Positions 4,571 to 63,808 of a DNA stretch of 64,000 nt are shown here, one piece after another. Position 1 is the stretch's first letter. Every line of letters begins with the position of its first letter. Source of the DNA: Heptranchias perlo (lineage: Eukaryota); NCBI RefSeq assembly GCF_035084215.1, contig NC_090336.1, positions 33,542,001-33,606,000 on the forward strand, given 5' to 3'. The notes below the pieces were generated by a model. It saw only the letters and a list, made by a program, of their open reading frames with translations. It had not been told where the DNA came from and did not search any database. Position numbers and translations under genes: made by a program.

Positions 4571-6323
4571 AAGAGAACCAAACACATAGAAAACGTCACA
4601 AAAAGTGTATTGAATTTGGCTCTGTTTTTGATTTTCTTTTAATTAAAGTACAGAACTGGAAAAGACTCTGCAGTCCATTTGGCCAGTTTCTCTCTCTCTC
4701 TAACTCCTTTTTCTTCCCTCCCCAGTTAAAAAGCCAGATATCTGTCACTTCAGCTTTGCATTATCTTTGTGAGAAAATGAGCATCATTCTAGTTGTAAAT
4801 TAATAAAATGAGCTGTAAGATTAGGTCGGATTGTCTCACTGAATTTTGGTAGCAATTTTACGAGTTTGCAGCCTGGTTGAATTCAATACTTTCTTGCTGC
4901 ATTTTGAAAATTGGGCAGGAAGGAAGACAGTGCCAAATTTTAGAATAACAGGTTTTGCATTGGAGTTCACCTTCTGGTTTAAGGCCCGAGTCTCTGTAGA
5001 TAGCAGGAGGCTGGTAGAAAAGTTATTTTCTCCCCTATTTCCTTGTTCTCATTTAGTCACTCTTCACTCCCAAGTTCTTCCTTTGCTGCTGTCAACTGGC
5101 TGCTCAGAGATGTGTTAGGGGAACCTCACTACAATATGACAGGAATCAAGAGCTCAATGGCAGGAAGAATTGGAGGCACAAACCAACATCCCACTACTCC
5201 ATAATGCTAAACCAGTGTTGCTGCAATTTCCCCCCCACTGTTTCATTATCCCCCATCTAAATTGATTTCAACTGCTTTTCAAGATACATTCAGTTGTTAC
5301 CTAATTCACGCAGTTACCTAACTAATGTGATGGCTGTTATCCAGATCATTTCAATTTCATTTTCATCTTTCAGTTGCCATGTCAAAATGCAGAACAATTT
5401 GTCTTCACCGAATTATAGTGACGTTAGATGGGGTGATTTGCATGCCAAATATAAACTAAATTAACCACTGTTCTTGTTTAACAATCAGTCACTTAATCTG
5501 AATGTTTGATTTGGGAGATGTTGTACACCGTTTAACATTTATAACAATGCAGGTTCTCTGGAACAGAATATTTCATTGTTTTTATACTGTCTTTCAATAA
5601 ACAAGTACAGAATACTAAAGTTTTTCAATAGCTTTATGTGAATGTGTTTTAGCCGATTCCTGTTCTGACCTTTCACGATTGAAGGTTTGAATTAAACCCA
5701 TATGTTTTCTTGTAGCACATAGCTATAGCTACTTGTTATTACATTGCTCAACAGTACATTTCCATAGATATGAGGAACAGTGGAAGGTGTAGAAGGTGAA
5801 TACAGTCGACTGACGTGAAGCTGGATGCTGTGAGAAAGGATAACTTTGGTTCTGTAAATGAGATCAGTGCTACATGGTATGGTCACCCGAGTGTAAACCC
5901 TTGAGCACACTACATGTGCACATTTTTCTAATCATTTACTGACCTGTGAACAATATCTAAATGAATATAATTTGAGTAAATTGTAAAGAGGACTTTCTGC
6001 AATATTTTCCAACTGTTGAAAGTATGTTCATTACATTGAAGCAACTTATCATTGACAAAGTTATCAGATCTTCTAACTTGTATAAATTTTAAAATAAAAC
6101 TTTAAAGATCTAGGTAATGCTGGCCCTGATGTACTATTCTTAACTTGGCAGTATTGGGCAGCGATAGTATAGAGTACAACTATGCAAGTTGATAATCTGC
6201 ACACAGAGGGGATAGTGTTACAACTGTTGAAAGGTACAACAGAATGGTGAGTGCATTTTGTAGTTCTTTTCCAGTTAGAAGTATGCACAAAATTAAATGT
6301 ATTCCATATCTGACAATAGCAAG

Positions 6324-6443
6324 TATATGTAATGTGCTGTCTATGTAAGACAGCACATTACATATATCTGTTAGATATATGTAATGTGCTGTCTTCTTGC
6401 AGCCTTTTGCAAGATGACAGCACATTACATATATCTAACAGAT
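6324..6443. repeat. Double palindrome: four alternating-orientation copies of tatatgtaatgtgctgtc
   Basis: Copies at 6324 (+), 6348-6366 (-), 6376 (+) and 6416-6433 (-). The second hairpin has perfect 28-bp arms at 6366-6393 and 6416-6443. Confidence 0.9.
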
Positions 6444-6588
6444 TTAAGGTTCAAGCACTTCCAGAATTGCAACTTACACCACTAAGCATGTTGAATGCTG
6501 TGTATTAAGATTAGCAGCCTATCCAATCTAAACTGCTTTTATATCAGTCAAACTGAATCACTTATTTGTTGAATACATTGAATACATA

Positions 6589-22951: not shown

Positions 22952-25595
22952 TTAGAATCATAAAATCATAGAAAGGTTACAGCATGGAAGGAGGCCATTG
23001 AGCCCATCGAGTCCGCGCCGGCTCTATGCAAGAGCGATCCAGCTAGTCCCACTCCCCCGCTCTATCCCCGTAGCCCTGCAAATTTTTTTCCTTTCAAGTA
23101 CTTATCCAGTTCCCTTTTGAAGGCCATGATTGAATCTACCTCCACCACCCCCTCTGGCAGTGCATTCCAGATCCTAACCACTCGCTGTGTAAAATAAGAT
23201 TTTCCTCATGTCACCTTTGGTTCTATTGCCAATCACCTTAAATCTATGTCCTCTGGTTCTTGACCCTTTCTGTCAAAGGGAACAGTTTATCTCTGTCTAG
23301 ACCCTTCATGATTTTGAATACCTCTATCAAATCTCCTCTCAAACTTTTCTGTTCCAAGGAGAACAATCCCAGCTTCTCCAGTCTATCCACGTAACTAAAG
23401 TCCCTCATCCCTAGAATCATTCCAGTAAATCTCTTCTGCACCCTCTCTAAGGCCTTCGCATCTTTCCTAAAGTGTGGTGCCCAGAACTGGACACAATACT
23501 CCAGCTGAGGCCAAACCAGCGTTTTATAAAGTTTCATCATGACTTCCTTGCTTTTCTACTCTATGCCTCTATTTATAAAGCCCAGGATCCCATATGCTTG
23601 TTTAACCGCTTTCTCAACCTGCCCTGCCACCTTCAATGATTTGTGTACCTATACCCCCAGATCTCTCTGTTCCTATACCCCTTTTAGAATTGTGCCCTTT
23701 ACCGAAAGGTATCAGCTCGTATTTTTCTGCATTAAATTTCATCTGCCATGTGTCCACCCATGCCACCAGCCGGTCTATATCCTCTTGAAGTCTATCACTA
23801 TCCTCCTCACTGTTCACTACACTTCCAAGTTTTGTGTCATCTGCAAATTTTGAAATTGTGCCCTGTACACTCAAGTCATTAATATATATCAAGAAAAGCA
23901 GTGGTCCTAGTACCTATCCCTGGGGAACACAACTGTACACCTCCCTCCAGTCCGAAAAACAGCTATTCACCACTACTGTCTGCTTCCTGTTACTTAGCCA
24001 ATTCTGTATCCATGCTTCTACTGCCCCTTTTATTCCATGGGCTTCAATCTTGATGACAAGCCTATTATACAACATTTTATCAAACGCCTTTTGAAAGTCC
24101 ATATACACCACATCAACTGCATTGCCCTCATCTACCCTCTCTGCTACCTCATCAAAAAACTCTATGAATTTAGTTAAACATGATTTGCCTTTAACAAATC
24201 CGTGCTGGCTTTCCCTAATCAATCCACACTTGTCCAAGTGACTGCTAATTCTGTCCCGGATTATCATTTCTAAAAGCTTCCCCACCACCGAGGTTAAACT
24301 GACTGGTGTATAGTTGCTGGGTTTATCCTTACACCCTTTTTTGAACAAGGGTGTCACATTTGCAGTTCTCCAGTCCTTTGGCACCACCCCAGTACCTAAG
24401 GATGTTTGGACGATTATGGCCAGTACCGCTGCAATTTCCACCCTTACTTCCCTCAGCAACGTAGGACGCATCCCATCCAGACCGGGTGACTTATCTATTT
24501 TAAGTACAGCTAGCCTTTCCAGAACTTTTTAATGAATTTTTAGCCCATCCAGTATCTCAACTACATCTTCCTTTACTGAGACTTTGGCAGTATATTTTCC
24601 CTTGGTAAAGACAGATGGAAAGCACTCATTTAGTACCTTGGCCATGCCCTCTGCCTCCATGAGTAGATCTCCTTTTTGGTCCCTAATTGGCCCCACCCCT
24701 CCTCTTACTGTCCGTTTACTGTTTACATGCCTATAGAAGACTTTTGGATTCTCTTTTACGTTGGCCGCCAGTCTATTCTCATACTCTCTCTTTGCTCCTC
24801 TTATTTCCTTTTTAACTTCCCCTCTGAACTTTCTATATTCAGCCTGGTTCTCACTTGTATTATCAGCCTGACATCTATCATACACCCCCTTTTTCTGCTT
24901 CATCTTACTCTCTATCTCTCTTGTCATCCAGGGAGCTCTGGCTTTAATTGCCCTAAGCCTCGTGAGAAGGTACCCAGACTGTACCCGAACCATCTCCTCC
25001 TTAAAGGCCGCCCATTGTTCAATTACAGTTTTGCCTGCCAATCTTTGATTCCAATTTACCCGAGCCAGATCTGTTCTCATCCAACTGAAATTGGCCCTCC
25101 TCCAATTGAGTATTTTTACTTTAGAGTGGTCCATGTCCTTTTCCATTGCTATTCTAACCCTTATGATACTATGATCCCTAAATGTTCTCCCACTGACACT
25201 TGCTCCGTTTGGCCCACCTCATTCCCCAGAAACAAGTCCAGCAATACCTCCTTCCTTGTTGGGTTGGAAACATACTGGTCAAGAAAGTTCTCCTGAACAC
25301 ACTTCAAATATTCCTTCTCCTCTTTGCCCTTTATACTATTACTATCCCAGTCTATATTAGGATAGTTGAAGTCCCCCATTATCACTATCCTATGGCTTTT
25401 GCACCTCTCTGTAATTTCCCTGCAAATTTGCTCCTCTATATCCTTCTCACTAGTTGGTGGCCTATAGAATACACCCAGTACTGCAATGGCACCTCTATTG
25501 TTTCTTAACTCTAACCAAATAGATGTTGTCCTTGACCCCTCAAGGGCATCCTCTCTTTCCAGTACTGCAATATTCTCCTTTATCAATACTGCCAT
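22952..25595 (-). mobile_element. CR1 LINE, about 2.6 kb decayed ORF2 (APE plus RT)
   Basis: FYRPP..MGDFNYP..LDLFL (APE); SQHGFVKGKSCLT, DFQKAFDK, ISKFADDTKL (RT); PQLEYCVQFW; (tctatgatt)-type tail. Confidence 0.96.
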
Positions 25596-30102: not shown

Positions 30103-30443
30103 TTCTCTCTCTTTCTCTTCCTTTCGGATGTTTCTCTCTCTCTCTCTCTCTCTATCTTTGGGTTCTGACCGTTTGTATATTCAGTAGTCCTGTATGTAAT
30201 GTCTCTCTGTCTGAACACTTTGATTGCCTTGACAACGGGCTGTTGGAAAGATTATCTGTAATCACCAGGCATTGTTCTCTGACTATATATGTGGTAACCT
30301 TCATGGAATCCCACACTCACCTGACGAAGGAGAAAGTCTCTGGAAGCTTGTGATTTTCAAATAAAACTGTTGGATTATAACCTGGTGTTGTAAGATTCCT
30401 TACATTTGTCCACCCCAGTCCATCACCGGCATCTCCACATCAT
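30103..30443 (+). mobile_element. Penelope-like element 3' pseudo-LTR fragment
   Basis: (TC)n, hammerhead-like motif, aataaa and terminal ccccagtccatcaccggcatctccacatc, shared with the inserts at 35565 and 35941. Confidence 0.75.
30317..30353 (+). ncRNA. Degenerate minimal hammerhead ribozyme
   Basis: tcac-CTGACGA-a-ggaga aag tctct-GGAA-gctt-gtga; the conserved GAAA is mutated to GGAA. Confidence 0.6.
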
Positions 30444-35421: not shown

Positions 35422-35653
35422 ACAGTTTCAGTTGATGTGACATCTTTGTGAAGAACATGATACACAGCTCAGATGTTGGTCAGATGAAATGTTAAAAGAT
35501 TTCACATTTTTTTTAATGAAGATAGAGCTCTTTTAAAAAGAAGTTAATAAACTAGGTTGATGGACATGATGTGGAGATGCCGGTGATGGACTGGGGTTGA
35601 CAATTGTAAACAATTTTACAACACCAAGTTATAGTCCAGCAATTTTATTTTAA

Positions 35654-35694
35654 ATTCACAAGCTTTCGGAGATTTTCTCCTTCCTCAGGCAAAT
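35654..35694 (-). ncRNA. Minimal type I hammerhead ribozyme (minus-strand copy)
   Basis: Exact reverse complement of 35750-35790. Confidence 0.75.
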
Positions 35695-35749
35695 GTTTCA
35701 AGATCTCCTTGAAGCCATAAATGCGTAGGCTTCAAGGAGATCTTGAAAC

Positions 35750-35790
35750 ATTTGCCTGAGGAAGGAGAAAATCTCCGAAAGCTTGTGAAT
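35750..35790 (+). ncRNA. Minimal type I hammerhead ribozyme
   Basis: Stem I AUUUGC/GUGAAU, core CUGAGGA, extra A, stem II GGAGA-AAA-UCUCC, GAAA, palindromic AGCU helix III, NUH triplet CUU (predicted cut after 35784). Confidence 0.78.
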
Positions 35791-35940
35791 TTAAAATAAA
35801 ATTGCTGGACTATAACTTAGGTTGATGGAAGAATGGCCCTATAGCTTTCACTGTTTAAAATGCCTTTAAAAAGATAGCTGCCATGCTAACAAAATGACAG
35901 AATAGGTTTAATAGACTGAATGGCCTGCTCCTGTTTTTAT

Positions 35941-36098
35941 AATTGTAAACAATTTTACAACACCAAGTTGAATTCACCTGAGGAAGGAGGAAGCCTCCGA
36001 AAGCTTGCGAATTTCAAATAAAATTGTTGGACTATAACTTGGTGTTGTAAAATTGTTTACAATTGTCAACCCCAGTCCATCACCGGCATCTCCACATC
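35941..36098 (+). mobile_element. Second Penelope-derived insert with a short inverted 5' segment
   Basis: 35941-35969 is the reverse complement of 36036-36064; TSD tcctgtttttataa at 35929-35942 and 36097-36110. Confidence 0.85.
35970..36014 (+). ncRNA. Minimal type I hammerhead ribozyme
   Basis: GAAUUCAC-CUGAGGA-A-GGAGG AAG CCUCC-GAAA-GCUU-GCGAAUUU; intact core, one mismatch in stem I. Confidence 0.75.
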
Positions 36099-37955
36099 CT
36101 GTTTTTATAAGGAATAGGAGCAGGAGTAGGTCATATGGCCCCTCGAGCCTGCTCTGCCATTCAACATGTTACTACGTATTACAAAATGGTGCCTTTCGTA
36201 CTTATTTGCAGAAATAAAAATATTATCATACTGTTTGCAGGGCAACACAATAAATTTAAAATACATATTTCAGAGGAGCTTGGTTCTTGTTTAACTTTAG
36301 GTGCAGATGACACTAATGTAGAAACTATAGAAAATAGGGTTTGATCTACATTTGTGGCTCATTCGACGTCAGTGGACAGAATTTGTAGGCAGCACGTCAT
36401 CAGAAAGGACCTCAGGCGGAGGGGCCCTAATTAAAGCCACAGTACCATTGTCCTTTCCAATCTCGATGCCAAATTCAGGTCAATTTCATCCACTCACAAT
36501 CAACCAGCCTAGAATTTAAAAATGTTTGAGCTGATTTTAAGAAAGCAATCAGCCAACTGACAGATATAATTTATATTGAAATACCTTTTCTGAGTGAGGT
36601 GATTGTATTTCATTTGAATGGCATGATTCCCAATCTTTTTCTTTTAAAAGGGAAGCCCATGAAAGATGCAGAATATGGATGCCTCAACAATGCTCCCTTA
36701 TCTATGGGGATTTTTATATTTCACAAAGCAAATGTATCTGAGTTGGGCACAGAAAGTATATTGACCAAAACAGGAAATCAGTAAGCTTCTGTTAAATACT
36801 AATTCACAAATATCCGTATCATGTAACCAGAAACAAGAATCGCATGTTAAGTTGCATCCAAGCTGACTCATTTACAGATTGTGCTGGTATGTAGAAAAAC
36901 GTCTCCTCAGTTATTTAGCTATTTCTGTAATTTTCGTTGTACATTTTCATTTATTGCTGCGTGGGGAGGGATGTGTGAAAGGGAAGAAAAATCCTCAAAA
37001 TCATACAGGGAAAAAAAAGTAGGGAATGGGCTAGATTTCCTCCCATTCTTAATCAATGGGCAGAAAATGTAGCCATCAGTTAGAAATTGGAGGACTTGGA
37101 GATGTGAAAGGGAAAGAAAATGCCAAAACTTGCAGGAAAAGTCTATAATAGCTAACTGGGCCACAGTCTGCAAATATAAGCCTGACTATGATTCTGAAAC
37201 AGTGATTTTGAATTAGAAGTTGTCTCTACTGCTACTAAGTAAGTGCTTAAAAACTTTTTAATACCCTTCATTCACAGGGCTGTGAATTTCTGATAAGCAG
37301 CAGTTGTTGAGACTCTCCGATGATTTAGATGGTTAAAGCAACGAGTAATTCACTGTGCAGATCAGTAAGGTCCCAGCTTTGATCGGAAGTCTGTGCTGAG
37401 GCAGCTGATCTCGTCCAGGACAGTGGCAGGGGTGCTTCATTTCACCTCAGCCCAAAGGATTTAGTGGAGGGGAACTGACTGAGGTTCCCCTTTCTCGTTT
37501 CCTCAGGATTTCCAGGGCTTTCCTGGGGATGAGGGGGCAGAGCTGGGCCTGTGCCTGCAGTAAGCGCAGGCCCTTCTTGGCACCCCAGTGCAGGGATGCC
37601 CAGAAAGCTCTGCCAATCAAAGTGTCCACAGGGGCCCGGGGGCAGACCAAAGACTGCAGGTGAGAAATGTTTTAAAAGTTTTAATCCCATCCTGCTTTCC
37701 AGGGCGCCTAGGTCTAACCATGACCTTTTGCCTGTCAATCTCTGAGCTGCAGGCCAGTCACATTCCTGTCCCTTCCACTGGTACTAGTTCCTGTAAATAG
37801 CCTGGCACAGGAAATCCTGGCGCTCCCTGGGTTTGAACAGGAGCTGTGGATGCTGTTCCTATCTAGTGCTGGGGTGATCGGAGGAGGGAGAGGTGGGGAG
37901 GGGTTGGGGAGGAAGAGAAGTAATGGGACAAAATTAGTGGAAGAAGGAGGAAAAA

Positions 37956-41512: not shown

Positions 41513-41697
41513 GGGGTAATTTTAACTTTTGGCGATAGTGTCAAACGGGCGATATCAGATCGGCTGCACGTTATAAACCCGCCTGATTTTCCTTTCTATT
41601 GAAGTCAATGGAAAAGAAAATCAGACGAGGTGCATAACGGGTGGCCCATCCGATCTCACCCGTTTTACACTATCGCCAAAAGTTTAAAATTACCTCC
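41513..41697. mobile_element. Fully palindromic MITE, about 185 bp
   Basis: ggtaattttaacttttggcgatagtgt / acactatcgccaaaagtttaaaattacc; inner arms ctgatttt/aaaatcag; centre attgaagtcaat. Confidence 0.85.
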
Positions 41698-48066: not shown

Positions 48067-48657
48067 ACCAACCAGATCCATGAAGCCCTGCCTCATGGTT
48101 CTCTTCAGCTGATATTCAAGCTATCAAAGCTGGAAGAGATGGCAGGGGCTAAATTGGGCCATGTAGCGCCCATTGTTTTGGTGCTACACGGCCTCTCCGA
48201 CATCCAAGATGGCGTCTTGGATGCGCATGCACGTTTTCTGCATGATGTGCGCCAGACGCCATCTTGGTATAGGAATTAGCGCAGGCGCAAATACCAAATG
48301 CTGGAAGCATGTAAAGTAGGGAGAAAATGTGTGCAATCAGTGTGCAATGTTGATTTAAAGTGATAAACACCATTTTAGACCTTAACGCTCAACTCAATGC
48401 ACAGTCTTATCCCCGACCATCTAAACGTGACTGACAGTGCCTGAAGGACCTCCCACCAGTGCTATTTAAAGGGGCCATGCAGGTGTTGCAGGTTAGTTGC
48501 TAGATTATTGCATCTGGCTGCTGGAGGAGTAGGAAGAATTTTTTGAAGCTCCCTATTCTTACTGAGAGTTCCTCCACTACTTCTGAGAGTGCTTTGGCAG
48601 ATACTGCCTTATGGGTCAGAAAGTTACAACCCTGGTTGAACAACATTCCTGCCAATC

Positions 48658-49852
48658 ATGGGTGGTCTGCTAGAGCTCCCGCTGGGCATTGAGCATGACT
48701 GGGAGCATGCAGAGAGGCCACGCCCATCAGGTCAAGCTGCAAGGAGACAGAGGACGAGGAGGCGCAGGGCACTGAGCAGGAGGCCCTACCCAATGAGGGC
48801 CTTCCGGGACCAATTCTCTTACCTCAACATGACCGAGGAGGATTGCATCCGACGCCTGAGGTTCATCAAAGAAGCCGTGATGGAGATCTATCAACTGGTG
48901 CGGCCACAACTGCAACCTCAGAACAGGGCGAGGACAGCATTGCCTGTGGCTGTGAAGGTCAGCCTGACACTGAATTTCTACGGCTCAGGATCATTTCAGG
49001 CCTCTGCTGGTGACATGTGCAACATCTCGCAGTATGCAGTGCACTGCTGCATAAGAGAGGTTACAGATGCACTGTACCTCATGAGGAACAGGTTCATCAC
49101 CTTCCCTCTCGACAGAGACAATCAGAACGACCGAGCACGGGGGTTCACCCACATTGCTGGCTTCCCCATGGTGCAGGGTACCATGGACTGCACACATATT
49201 GCCCTGTGTGCCCTGCACATCAACTCAGCCGTCTTCGTCAATAGAAAGGGCTTCCACTCCCTCAACGTGCAGCTGGTGTGCAACCACACGCATCAAATCA
49301 TGGAGGTCGATGCCCGCTACCCTGGGAGCAGTCATGACGCCTTTGTCATGCAGCAGTCCAACGTGCCAGCGATCTTTAGCCCAACTAGGCAAGTCAAAGG
49401 CTGGCTACTGGGCGGCAAGGGCTATCCCCTCGCACAACGGTCAGGAACCCACGCATACGTGCACAGCAGGCCTACAATGAGAGCCATGCTGCCACATGCA
49501 ACATCATGGAGCACAGCATAGGCCTCCTCAAACAATGCTTCCGCTGCCTGGACCGGTCTGGAGGAGCCCTGCAGTACTCCCTAAGTGGGTGGGCAGATTT
49601 GTGGTGCTCTGCTGCATGCTGCACAACATCGTCATCATGAGGGACCAGCCTTTGCCACCAATTATTGGAGAAGACCCTGAGCCAGAGGAGGAAGAGGCGG
49701 AGGAGCAGGAGGAGGAGGAGGCGGTGGAGGAGGAGGAGGAGGCGGTGGAGCCGGAAGAGGAAGTGGAGGAAGACACAAGGGTGCAACAGGAACCACACGC
49801 CTTGTCTGCAAGGGCTGTGCGTGCTCACCTGATCCGTGCCCGCTATCAATAA
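48658..49852 (+). pseudogene. Harbinger (HARBI1-like) DDE transposase, frameshifted
   Basis: FYGSGSFQ, GFPMVQGTMDCTH, NRKGFHSLNVQLVC, YPGSSHD, GGKGYP (catalytic D changed to G), MEHSIGLLK..LDRSGG, CCMLHN, acidic tail; frameshifts near 49435 and 49580. Confidence 0.93.
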
Positions 49853-62238: not shown

Positions 62239-62567
62239 TCACGAAGGGTATGCACAAGGGTGTCTGACAGACTGTCATATTTTTCATTTATATTTGTTTT
62301 TTGTTAAAGTCACATTAAATATTATCATTCTCACCATTACTGTCACATCTTGCCCATTCTTGACTGGCTTTTGTGATAGGCCCCTTTCATGAGCTTCATC
62401 ATGAATGGCGACACTTGATGCCACCCAGTGGATGACTTTACAGTGGGTGTATGTGTTGCTGCAGAACTGTTTTGTTGTGTGTGTGTGTGGGGGTGGTAGT
62501 GGTGGAGCTGGTGTTGGTGCTGCTCTTTCCAGGTGGTGTGAAGATTGGACTATTCTCACTTTCTGAT

Positions 62568-63808
62568 CTAATGAGAACCGTTCACAAATGAGTGACTCCC
62601 TGGCCTCACGAGCAGCCAGGTGAGCCGCTGCACTGCCCGTGGGTTCGTCGTCCTCCTCCTCCTGCTGCTCCTGCTCCTCCTCAATGTTGATTGCACATGT
62701 GGATAGTGGATAAGGGCACGGGGCCTCCTCAACCGGTACCCCTCTCTGTTGCGCCATGTTGTGCAGGACACAACACACGACTATAATGTGACCCACTCTC
62801 GCTGGTGCGTATTGAAGCGTTCCCCCAGAACGATCGAGGCACCAAAATCGCATCTTCAGCAGCCCTATTGCATGTTCAATAATAGACCTGGTGGCGATGT
62901 GGCTGTTGTTGTATCGATGCTGTTGCTTGCTGATGGGGTTCCTCTGAAGTGTCATGAGCCACGTGTGCAGGGGGTATCCCTTGTCCCCGAGGAGCCAGCC
63001 CTTAGGGCTATTCGATTCGTGGAAGAGGCCCGGGATGTTGGATTCCCTCAGAATGAACGAATCGTGGCAGCTGCCAGGGAACCTGACGCACACGTGAAGG
63101 AGTCTTTTGCGGTGGTCACAAACTAGCTGAATGTTGATGGAGTGATATCCCTTTCTGTTGATGAACAGTCCTGGCTCGTGTGGAGGTGCTTGGATTGCTT
63201 TATGCGTGTAATCGATTGCACCCTGTACCCATGGGAAGCCAGCCACAGAGTGGAATCCCACTGCCCTCTCCGTCTGGCTGAGGTCGTCCAGGGGAAGTTG
63301 ACGTACTGCGAGGCCTTGTGAAACAAACCGTCGGTCACCTGCCTTTTGCACTTGTGTGCAGATTACTGACAGACCCCGACGATGCCACCAGTGCCACCCT
63401 GAAATGATCCGGAGGTGGAGAAGCTGATGGCAGTAGTGACTTTAACGGTGACAGGTAATGAGATGCCTCCAGGCCCAGCCAAGAGCAGCTCGGCATGAAG
63501 GAGGCTGCAGATGTCTGCGACCACTTGGTGACTCACTCTCAGCTTCTGTATGCACTGCTCCTCAGAGAGGTCCAGGAAGCTGAGCCTCGGTCTGTAGACC
63601 CTCTGACGAGGGTAGTGCCTCCTGCGCCATCACTCCCTCTGTTGTTCCCCTCTCTGCTTTTGTGCAGGTGACTGTGGTGCAGCACTGTGTTGAGCTACAA
63701 GTGGTGGAAGTGCACGCCGTGCCTGGCGAGGCTGGTGATGTTGCTCGTCCTCGGATGTAGTGGTGAATGCAGCCATCACACCCCACCCCCCCCCCCCCCC
63801 CCCGCCAT
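62568..63808 (-). pseudogene. Harbinger (HARBI1-like) DDE transposase with stops and frameshift in the N-terminal half
   Basis: GFPWVQGAIDYTH, NRKGYHSINIQLVCD, FPGSCHD, LLGDKGYP, IEHAIGLLKMRF..LDRSGG, CCVLHN; N-terminal RRRHYPRQRVYRPRLSFLDLSEEQC in another frame; G-run expansion at the start. Confidence 0.93.

Follow-up and report, generated by a model that had tools for sequence, protein, structure and literature searches.

Position 35,565 of a 64,000-nucleotide stretch of the Heptranchias perlo genome (the window; contig NC_090336.1, positions 33,542,001 to 33,606,000) is the first base of a short insert in which two complementary arms each carry a hammerhead motif on their own strand. The question raised by this locus is whether such a palindrome moves as a unit in its own right, as a reading of the sequence alone had proposed, or was left behind by a single insertion of a larger retrotransposon. 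All coordinates below are those of the window.

Insert, parent element, and empty allele

The insert (35565 to 35817) measures 253 bp between the two copies of an exact 12-bp target site duplication (TSD), TAGGTTGATGGA, located at 35553 to 35564 and 35818 to 35829, and a start codon is all that it holds in terms of ORF content. Its arms, at 35626 to 35716 and 35728 to 35818, are 91 nt each, 100% complementary and 11 nt apart, so that all the measurements given by the sequence-only reading are confirmed. Its description of the whole insert as a perfect palindrome has to be narrowed: the 61 bp at 35565 to 35625 have no pairing partner, which makes the insert only partly palindromic, and base 35818 has a double role, ending the right arm and opening the second TSD copy. 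The full hairpin folds at -181 kcal/mol, with a z value of -27 versus shuffles. Nor are the 11 nt at the center a mere spacer, since they are the next 11 nt of the parent pseudo-LTR (pLTR) and belong, on the plus strand, to the right arm.

On the minus strand, positions 35565 to 35716 form a tail-bearing arm of 152 nt, an exact match to the pLTR that precedes the 902-aa ORF of locus L125, and this arm ends at the start codon of that ORF (35567 to 35565). On the plus strand, 35717 to 35818 form the inverted arm, which has no tail and consists of 102 nt of this pLTR, the 11 central nucleotides included; it is found letter for letter, after parent upstream sequence, in loci L093, L094, L125, and L129. 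The joint between them is blunt, the minus-strand arm (35716 to 35565) meeting the plus-strand arm (35717 to 35818), which goes 11 nt further upstream. Judging by the end positions across the family, the segment at 35565 to 35603 (minus strand) corresponds to the Penelope “tail,” delimited by the two usual arm ends, which are putative reverse transcription start sites. The next ca. 22 nt (35604 to 35625, minus strand) are present in the inverted arm of most copies and absent from the inverted arm here. At the other extreme, the plus-strand arm opens with the remnant of a TATA-like box of the pLTR, its first T missing (35717 to 35722), for which the parent context suggests a promoter role. The short copies of this subfamily usually start at 35746 to 35749 (plus strand), 30 nt on from the TATA-like box, at what is probably the transcription start.

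The parent element is extremely abundant. In the 3.25 Gb of genome searched for pLTR matches, a 32-mer from the arm had 62,115 exact matches, and an 18-mer from the inner end of the arm had 9,659. Long copies are tandem units with a period of 3081 bp (locus L111) that carry the 902-aa ORF, which starts directly at the end of the tail. A reverse transcriptase (RT) domain was detected in this ORF (Pfam RVT_1, E value of 3e-10); Pfam gave no GIY-YIG match at 1e-3, and a PDB search with the ORF gave nothing significant. A stretch near the C-terminus, VYLIRC...WYIGET, accompanied by Cys and His residues and recognized by eye, may be a GIY-YIG motif, and the assignment of the parent to the Penelope/Poseidon clade, made by likeness, is tentative. 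The RT ORF, tandem pLTRs, TSD, tail at one end, and minimal hammerhead are nevertheless all present, as in endonuclease-bearing (EN+) Penelope-like elements, and both arms, including the 11 central nucleotides, are letter for letter the pLTR of the ORF-intact L125. The Penelope origin with an inverted, truncated pLTR that had been recognized from the sequence was therefore correct. Locus L111 (G000:C1:4459500-4469000) has two identical intact tandem 902-aa ORFs, and the intact ORFs of L111 and L125 are candidates for an in vitro system. A second group of copies, subfamily B (L246-L275; L270), has a tandem spacing of ca. 3069 bp and a different sequence between the TATA-like box and the hammerhead; 1,215 exact matches of this subfamily go upstream of its probable start, and 47 of the 91 arms in the sample were placed in it.

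Both forms of the locus were present in the short-read contigs of four runs, all made from a single sample, possibly the very one from which the assembly was derived. The filled left junction had a depth of 6.9 to 8.1, and an empty-site contig, in which 35564 runs straight into 35830 with one copy of the TSD, had a depth of 6 to 8. Flank depth beside both junction forms was 11 to 15, and the contigs branch exactly at the TSD, one of the flank contigs beginning exactly at 35818. Because filled and empty alleles are both found, the insertion is heterozygous and young, and the TSD is a true duplication. The recent insertion suggested earlier thus holds, with an empty allele present and both arms identical to an ORF-intact copy. 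As for the suspicion that the palindrome is a fold-back artifact, the left junction is no artifact of the assembly, and the center of the palindrome is spanned by none of the short-read contigs listed.

Formation of the head-to-head arms

We consider, with a probability of about 0.88, that an endonuclease-bearing Penelope-like retrotransposon left a young, 5'-truncated and heterozygous copy at this locus, and that the head-to-head hairpin was likely built in this one insertion. The protein of the element would make staggered cuts in the two target strands, at a distance of 12 nt. Of the resulting ends, one would prime reverse transcription at the end of the tail (the start codon) and the other further upstream, usually by ca. 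35 nt and here by ca. 60 nt, perhaps with some help from weak similarity to the target. The two cDNAs would proceed toward the 5' end of the RNA, which would come from a single source locus, and stop 11 nt apart near the TATA-like box, the template being likely a read-through (tandem) transcript, because the arms go upstream of the putative start. The cDNA ends would be joined blunt, head to head, and the second strands filled in. In the simplest form, a single RNA molecule would be copied twice by strand displacement, Penelope RTs not being known to carry RNase H; the observations would also fit a tandem transcript that provides two identical pLTRs, or a pair of transcripts from the one locus. 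In the twin priming of LINE-1, the second target end also primes on the RNA and produces a 5' inversion, as proposed here, but its cDNAs derive from different RNA segments, whereas here both would derive from the same segment, giving a palindrome.

The family evidence comes from 87 short pairs from all loci examined, many of them found by likeness to the query. A tail was present on exactly one arm in 86 of the 87 pairs and on both arms in 0, and the one-tail rule held for 22 of 22 pairs in the unbiased subset. Measured from the same anchor, the ends of the tail-bearing arms lie at 65 to 73 nt and those of the short arms at 29 to 37 nt. The TSD was 12 bp long in 38 pairs (the mode of the family) and 12 to 14 bp in 68, and was not found for 10 of the 87. 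Within a copy, the arms were identical in 53 of 69 comparable pairs, versus 15.1 in shuffled pairings (maximum of 22 in 1000 shuffles), and six haplotypes were confined to both arms of one copy. Among the pairs with unequal arms, L189 has four arm differences, and L224 and L244 have a G/C change that also separates subfamilies; these three could be two-template events. The ongoing homogenization offered earlier for the lack of divergence between the arms is unneeded, because the arms were likely identical at birth and 16 of the 69 pairs already differ, several of them by CpG-type changes. The inverted arm studied here begins ca. 22 to 25 nt short of the usual second site, and that of L016 does likewise.

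That one arm of the same element was instead copied from the other as DNA, by fold-back or self-priming, and not from RNA seems to us improbable. It would account directly for the identity of the arms, a quasi-palindrome exists in the parent at this position (with 11 copies sharing a perfect center with a 2-nt loop), C is overrepresented in front of the arm, and self-priming has been proposed for rotifer Penelopes (PMC3846280). However, each arm has sequence that is missing from the other (11 nt at the center, 61 nt on the tail side), and the loop is sense on the strand that contains the cDNA of the tail arm, which fold-back of this cDNA alone could not produce. Tail-less solo copies also end at the second site, without a partner, and both sites prime in vitro in the anole study (PMC11167929). 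The bases found before the arm start (55 C, 14 A, and 14 G) imply that snap-back of the cDNA end may help some joints, but it would be at most a joining step. Two other sources of the inner arm ends were discarded: a cap-templated extra base at the position of the TATA box predicts G before the arm start, where C is in excess, and a splice acceptor or lariat stop at the arm-start base finds no AG there. In loci with this arm end, the cDNA often continues past the inner end of the arm with G, GA, or GAT(G), which is partly accounted for by the parent quasi-palindrome; the remainder may be non-templated addition or a jump to the start site of the tail.

The two-primer insertion from RNA preferred here has close biochemical and structural relatives. 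In vitro, the anole Penelope protein cuts both target strands and extends them from two neighboring internal sites of the RNA, which delimit the tail, and ribozyme cleavage is not needed (PMC11167929). The element concerned, Poseidon from Anolis carolinensis (PAc), resembles ours in the cutting and extension of both target strands, in having two internal RT start sites between which the tail lies, and in a hammerhead cut site that is unused as an insertion end (PMC11167929). The ORF of PAc begins inside the hammerhead and its start sites are 111 to 118 nt into the ORF (PMC11167929), whereas here the hammerhead and both start sites lie upstream of the ATG. Penelope elements with inverted truncated pLTRs, a one-sided tail of 30 to 40 bp, and palindromic junctions have already been published (PMC3846280, PMC8557442, PMC2377424), and the suggestion of an undescribed system is not supported. 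From the sections of those papers available, EN+ Penelope-like elements share with this locus the head-to-head pLTRs, the tail at one end, the TSD, the tandem parent with pLTRs, and the palindrome at the inverted junction (PMC3846280, PMC8557442, PMC2377424). Unlike the elements published in those sections, the copy here is only 253 bp long, with a start codon as its ORF content. The same sections describe the Drosophila virilis promoter as TATA-less and internal (PMC3846280, PMC8557442, PMC2377424), whereas the 5' ends here track a TATA-like box. The insert is thus an ordinary young Penelope stump and not a new kind of mobile element.

The relationship with the TATA-like box was seen in a set of 91 unbiased arms, which excludes 9 arms in local duplications and in which some arms were put in the wrong subfamily and shortened by a few bases. 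Arms starting 45 to 69 nt upstream of the anchor numbered 40 of the 91 (1.6 per nt), and those starting at 80 to 99 nt numbered 6 (0.3 per nt); the arms of the insert studied here start at 79 and 90 nt. In subfamily A the peak is at 61 nt (5 of 34 arms), 30 nt on from the first T of TATAAAT, while subfamily B, with six extra bases there, peaks at 66 to 68 nt (10 of 47), 29 to 31 nt past its TATA-like box. Because the peak tracks the TATA-like box and not the ribozyme, the sequence comparison suggests that it marks the transcription start. A search of a literature collection with few subscription journals retrieved no report of run-off ends at TATA+30 or of an arm-concordance test.

A broader proposal, to which we would give even odds, is that this Penelope family is a genomic record of integration. 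A single protein-RNA complex would copy the same RNA stretch twice, once for each of the cut target strands, and the two rounds would invariably begin at separate, fixed sites. Most short copies would be run-off cDNAs that extend to the element's own start 30 nt after the TATA box, with priming at the start codon of the mRNA of the element itself. If this is true, Penelope integration would normally yield head-to-head hairpins, and ca. 10^4 copies would provide, with their ends, a direct map of the Penelope RNA. The transposition cycle of Penelope has been described as still undefined (PMC8557442), and the one-tail rule, the arm concordance, and the TATA+30 ends supply in vivo figures against which the two-primer, one-RNA model can be tested. 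This locus is a clean filled/empty pair, and the family looks currently active, with intact tandem ORFs.

Palindrome centers across the family

A non-autonomous mobile unit, similar to a MITE or a retrozyme, could have spread from a palindromic master, with the centers diverging later by deletion. We consider this very improbable and already largely refuted. A DNA search with the insert gave more than 20 full-length, near-identical matches with centers within ca. 10 nt (40 of 72 candidates scored), which at first sight favors such a unit. However, this search ranks by likeness and 40 of the 72 candidates were scored, so that close centers were selected for by ascertainment. The junctions of these look-alikes differ base by base, and the central junction studied here is unique among all 55 exact matches having C before the arm start. 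A total of 83 non-parent arms start at this base, with the preceding base being C, A, or G in the proportions given above, and 73 start one base on; true truncations were 80 of the 83 at this base and ca. 23 of 30 examined (of the 73) at the neighboring one. The arm start is, hence, no marked hotspot, with at most a 1.5-fold excess over its neighbor.

The unbiased sample, made of the first 100 of the 62,115 32-mer matches (4.9 Mb of one contig), contained 22 head-to-head pair records, one of them a local duplicate, with anchor distances spread from 37 to 257 nt. As a rough estimate, scaled from these 4.9 Mb of one contig, there would be ca. 10^4 short hairpins genome-wide, which could have consequences for small-RNA silencing or palindrome instability in this genome. 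Loci L002 and L006 have one junction in common, and the commonest shared center, with its 2-nt loop, is found in 11 copies; both facts would fit a mobile palindrome. However, that center sits on the parent quasi-palindrome and its copies appear in both orientations (5 and 6) with five haplotypes, and within each copy a variant of one arm recurs in the other. Counting the copies with the same center was the check proposed along with the idea of a mobile family; it revealed different breakpoints among copies, variable centers, and a single occurrence of the junction studied here, all of which speak against that idea.

The known classes of small mobile elements fit no better. The 61 bp unpaired at one end, the unique junction, and the variable centers argue against a MITE. 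In the available text of the preprint describing them, non-LTR retrozymes are, as this insert is, non-coding, derived from Penelope-like elements, and provided with a type I hammerhead, but they form head-to-tail tandem units bounded by ribozyme cut sites (bioRxiv 10.64898/2026.07.22.740005). Here, there is a single head-to-head insert whose bounds are the putative RT start sites, with ends at the tail and near the TATA-like box, and this assignment was also rejected. A tandem or circular template with a tail-to-head junction was discarded as well, the corresponding pattern giving three matches, all inside palindromes.

Hammerhead motifs and neighboring repeats

Both arms carry a minimal type I hammerhead, as had been claimed, with the core present on both strands and reading outward from the center of the insert. 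The plus-strand motif (35750 to 35790) consists of helix I (35750 to 35755 paired with 35785 to 35790), CUGAGGA (35756 to 35762), helix II (35764 to 35776), and GAAA (35777 to 35780), with helix III reduced to the palindrome AAGCUU and a putative cut after 35784. The minus-strand motif (35694 to 35654) is its mirror image, with the putative cut between 35660 and 35659. The Rfam hammerhead models found no match in the insert at E values of ≤1. The scan retrieved only generic miRNA-hairpin matches below the gathering score, which reflect the hairpin and were discarded as evidence of a miRNA. Hence, of the model search suggested earlier, the part relying on Rfam failed, while the core and the covariation of the helices were found. 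Covariation was assessed in 302 arm records chosen by the core pattern, with some overlapping loci. The three bases after GAAA and the cut-site base were invariant, the outer pair of helix II was A-U, G-C, or G-U, and the commonest variants of helix I kept five to six of the six pairs. This family variation supports the predicted hammerhead fold.

Folded in isolation, the hammerheads were as stable as shuffled sequences (z of -0.7 to -1.1), and the cofold of two copies gave a dimer with swapped helices I and II, not a helix III dimer. The hammerhead of each arm would need a second copy to fold. In the available text on minimal hammerheads of the Penelope kind, single motifs showed no cleavage and dimers showed low cleavage (PMC4209133). 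Our motifs share with those described there the extra base between positions 9 and 10.1, the G10.1-C11.1 pair, the palindromic 15.2-16.2 positions, the lack of loop 3, and the expected action as dimers; unlike them, the copies here point in opposite directions, outward, within one perfect stem, and their cleavage is putative. In the full fold of the plus strand, the pair probability of helix II was 0.000000, and symmetry extends this to the minus strand. Because the arms are joined head to head, transcription from either side would make the antisense arm before the ribozyme, so the masking of the ribozyme in both transcripts that the sequence-only reading anticipated is also predicted here. 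This masking is predicted to be a by-product of the insertion mechanism, from which the arrangement follows, and the copy is most likely inert; a function as self-masking ribozyme or dsRNA source is unsupported. That the locus is kept as a ribozyme switch or a source of ds or small RNA is the least probable reading of all: the perfect 91-bp stem and the helix II probability of ca. 0 would suit it, but the insert is on one haplotype only, which leaves little time for selection, ca. 20 similar short hairpins occur among 100 sampled matches, and such minimal hammerheads are uncut singly and poorly cleaved as dimers in the text cited (PMC4209133).

The surroundings are rich in repeats. A comparison of 14 of the 67 long stop-to-stop frames of the window with Pfam gave transposon domains only and no host-gene domains. 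DDE_Tnp_4 transposase frames, presumably Harbinger-like, are located at 48640 to 49521 (plus strand) and 62284 to 63441 (minus strand), and a LINE-type RT fragment (RVT_1) is found at 23914 to 25218 (minus strand). A tandem-palindromic stretch with 39-nt arms (95%) lies at 6317 to 6446, and an inverted repeat with 60-nt arms (82%) at 41520 to 41688 is a possible small DNA element. At 30180 to 30443 (plus strand) lies a longer and older stretch of pLTR from a related Penelope subfamily; it is 88% similar to the insert studied and has a tail and a damaged hammerhead, with GGAA for GAAA. Finally, a second insertion of the same family is only 100 bp away from the first, at 35929 to 36110, at the edge of another abundant repeat. 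It has a 14-bp TSD (35929 to 35942 and 36097 to 36110), a 27-nt inverted arm, and a hammerhead arm with a tail, and is 94% similar to the first insert.
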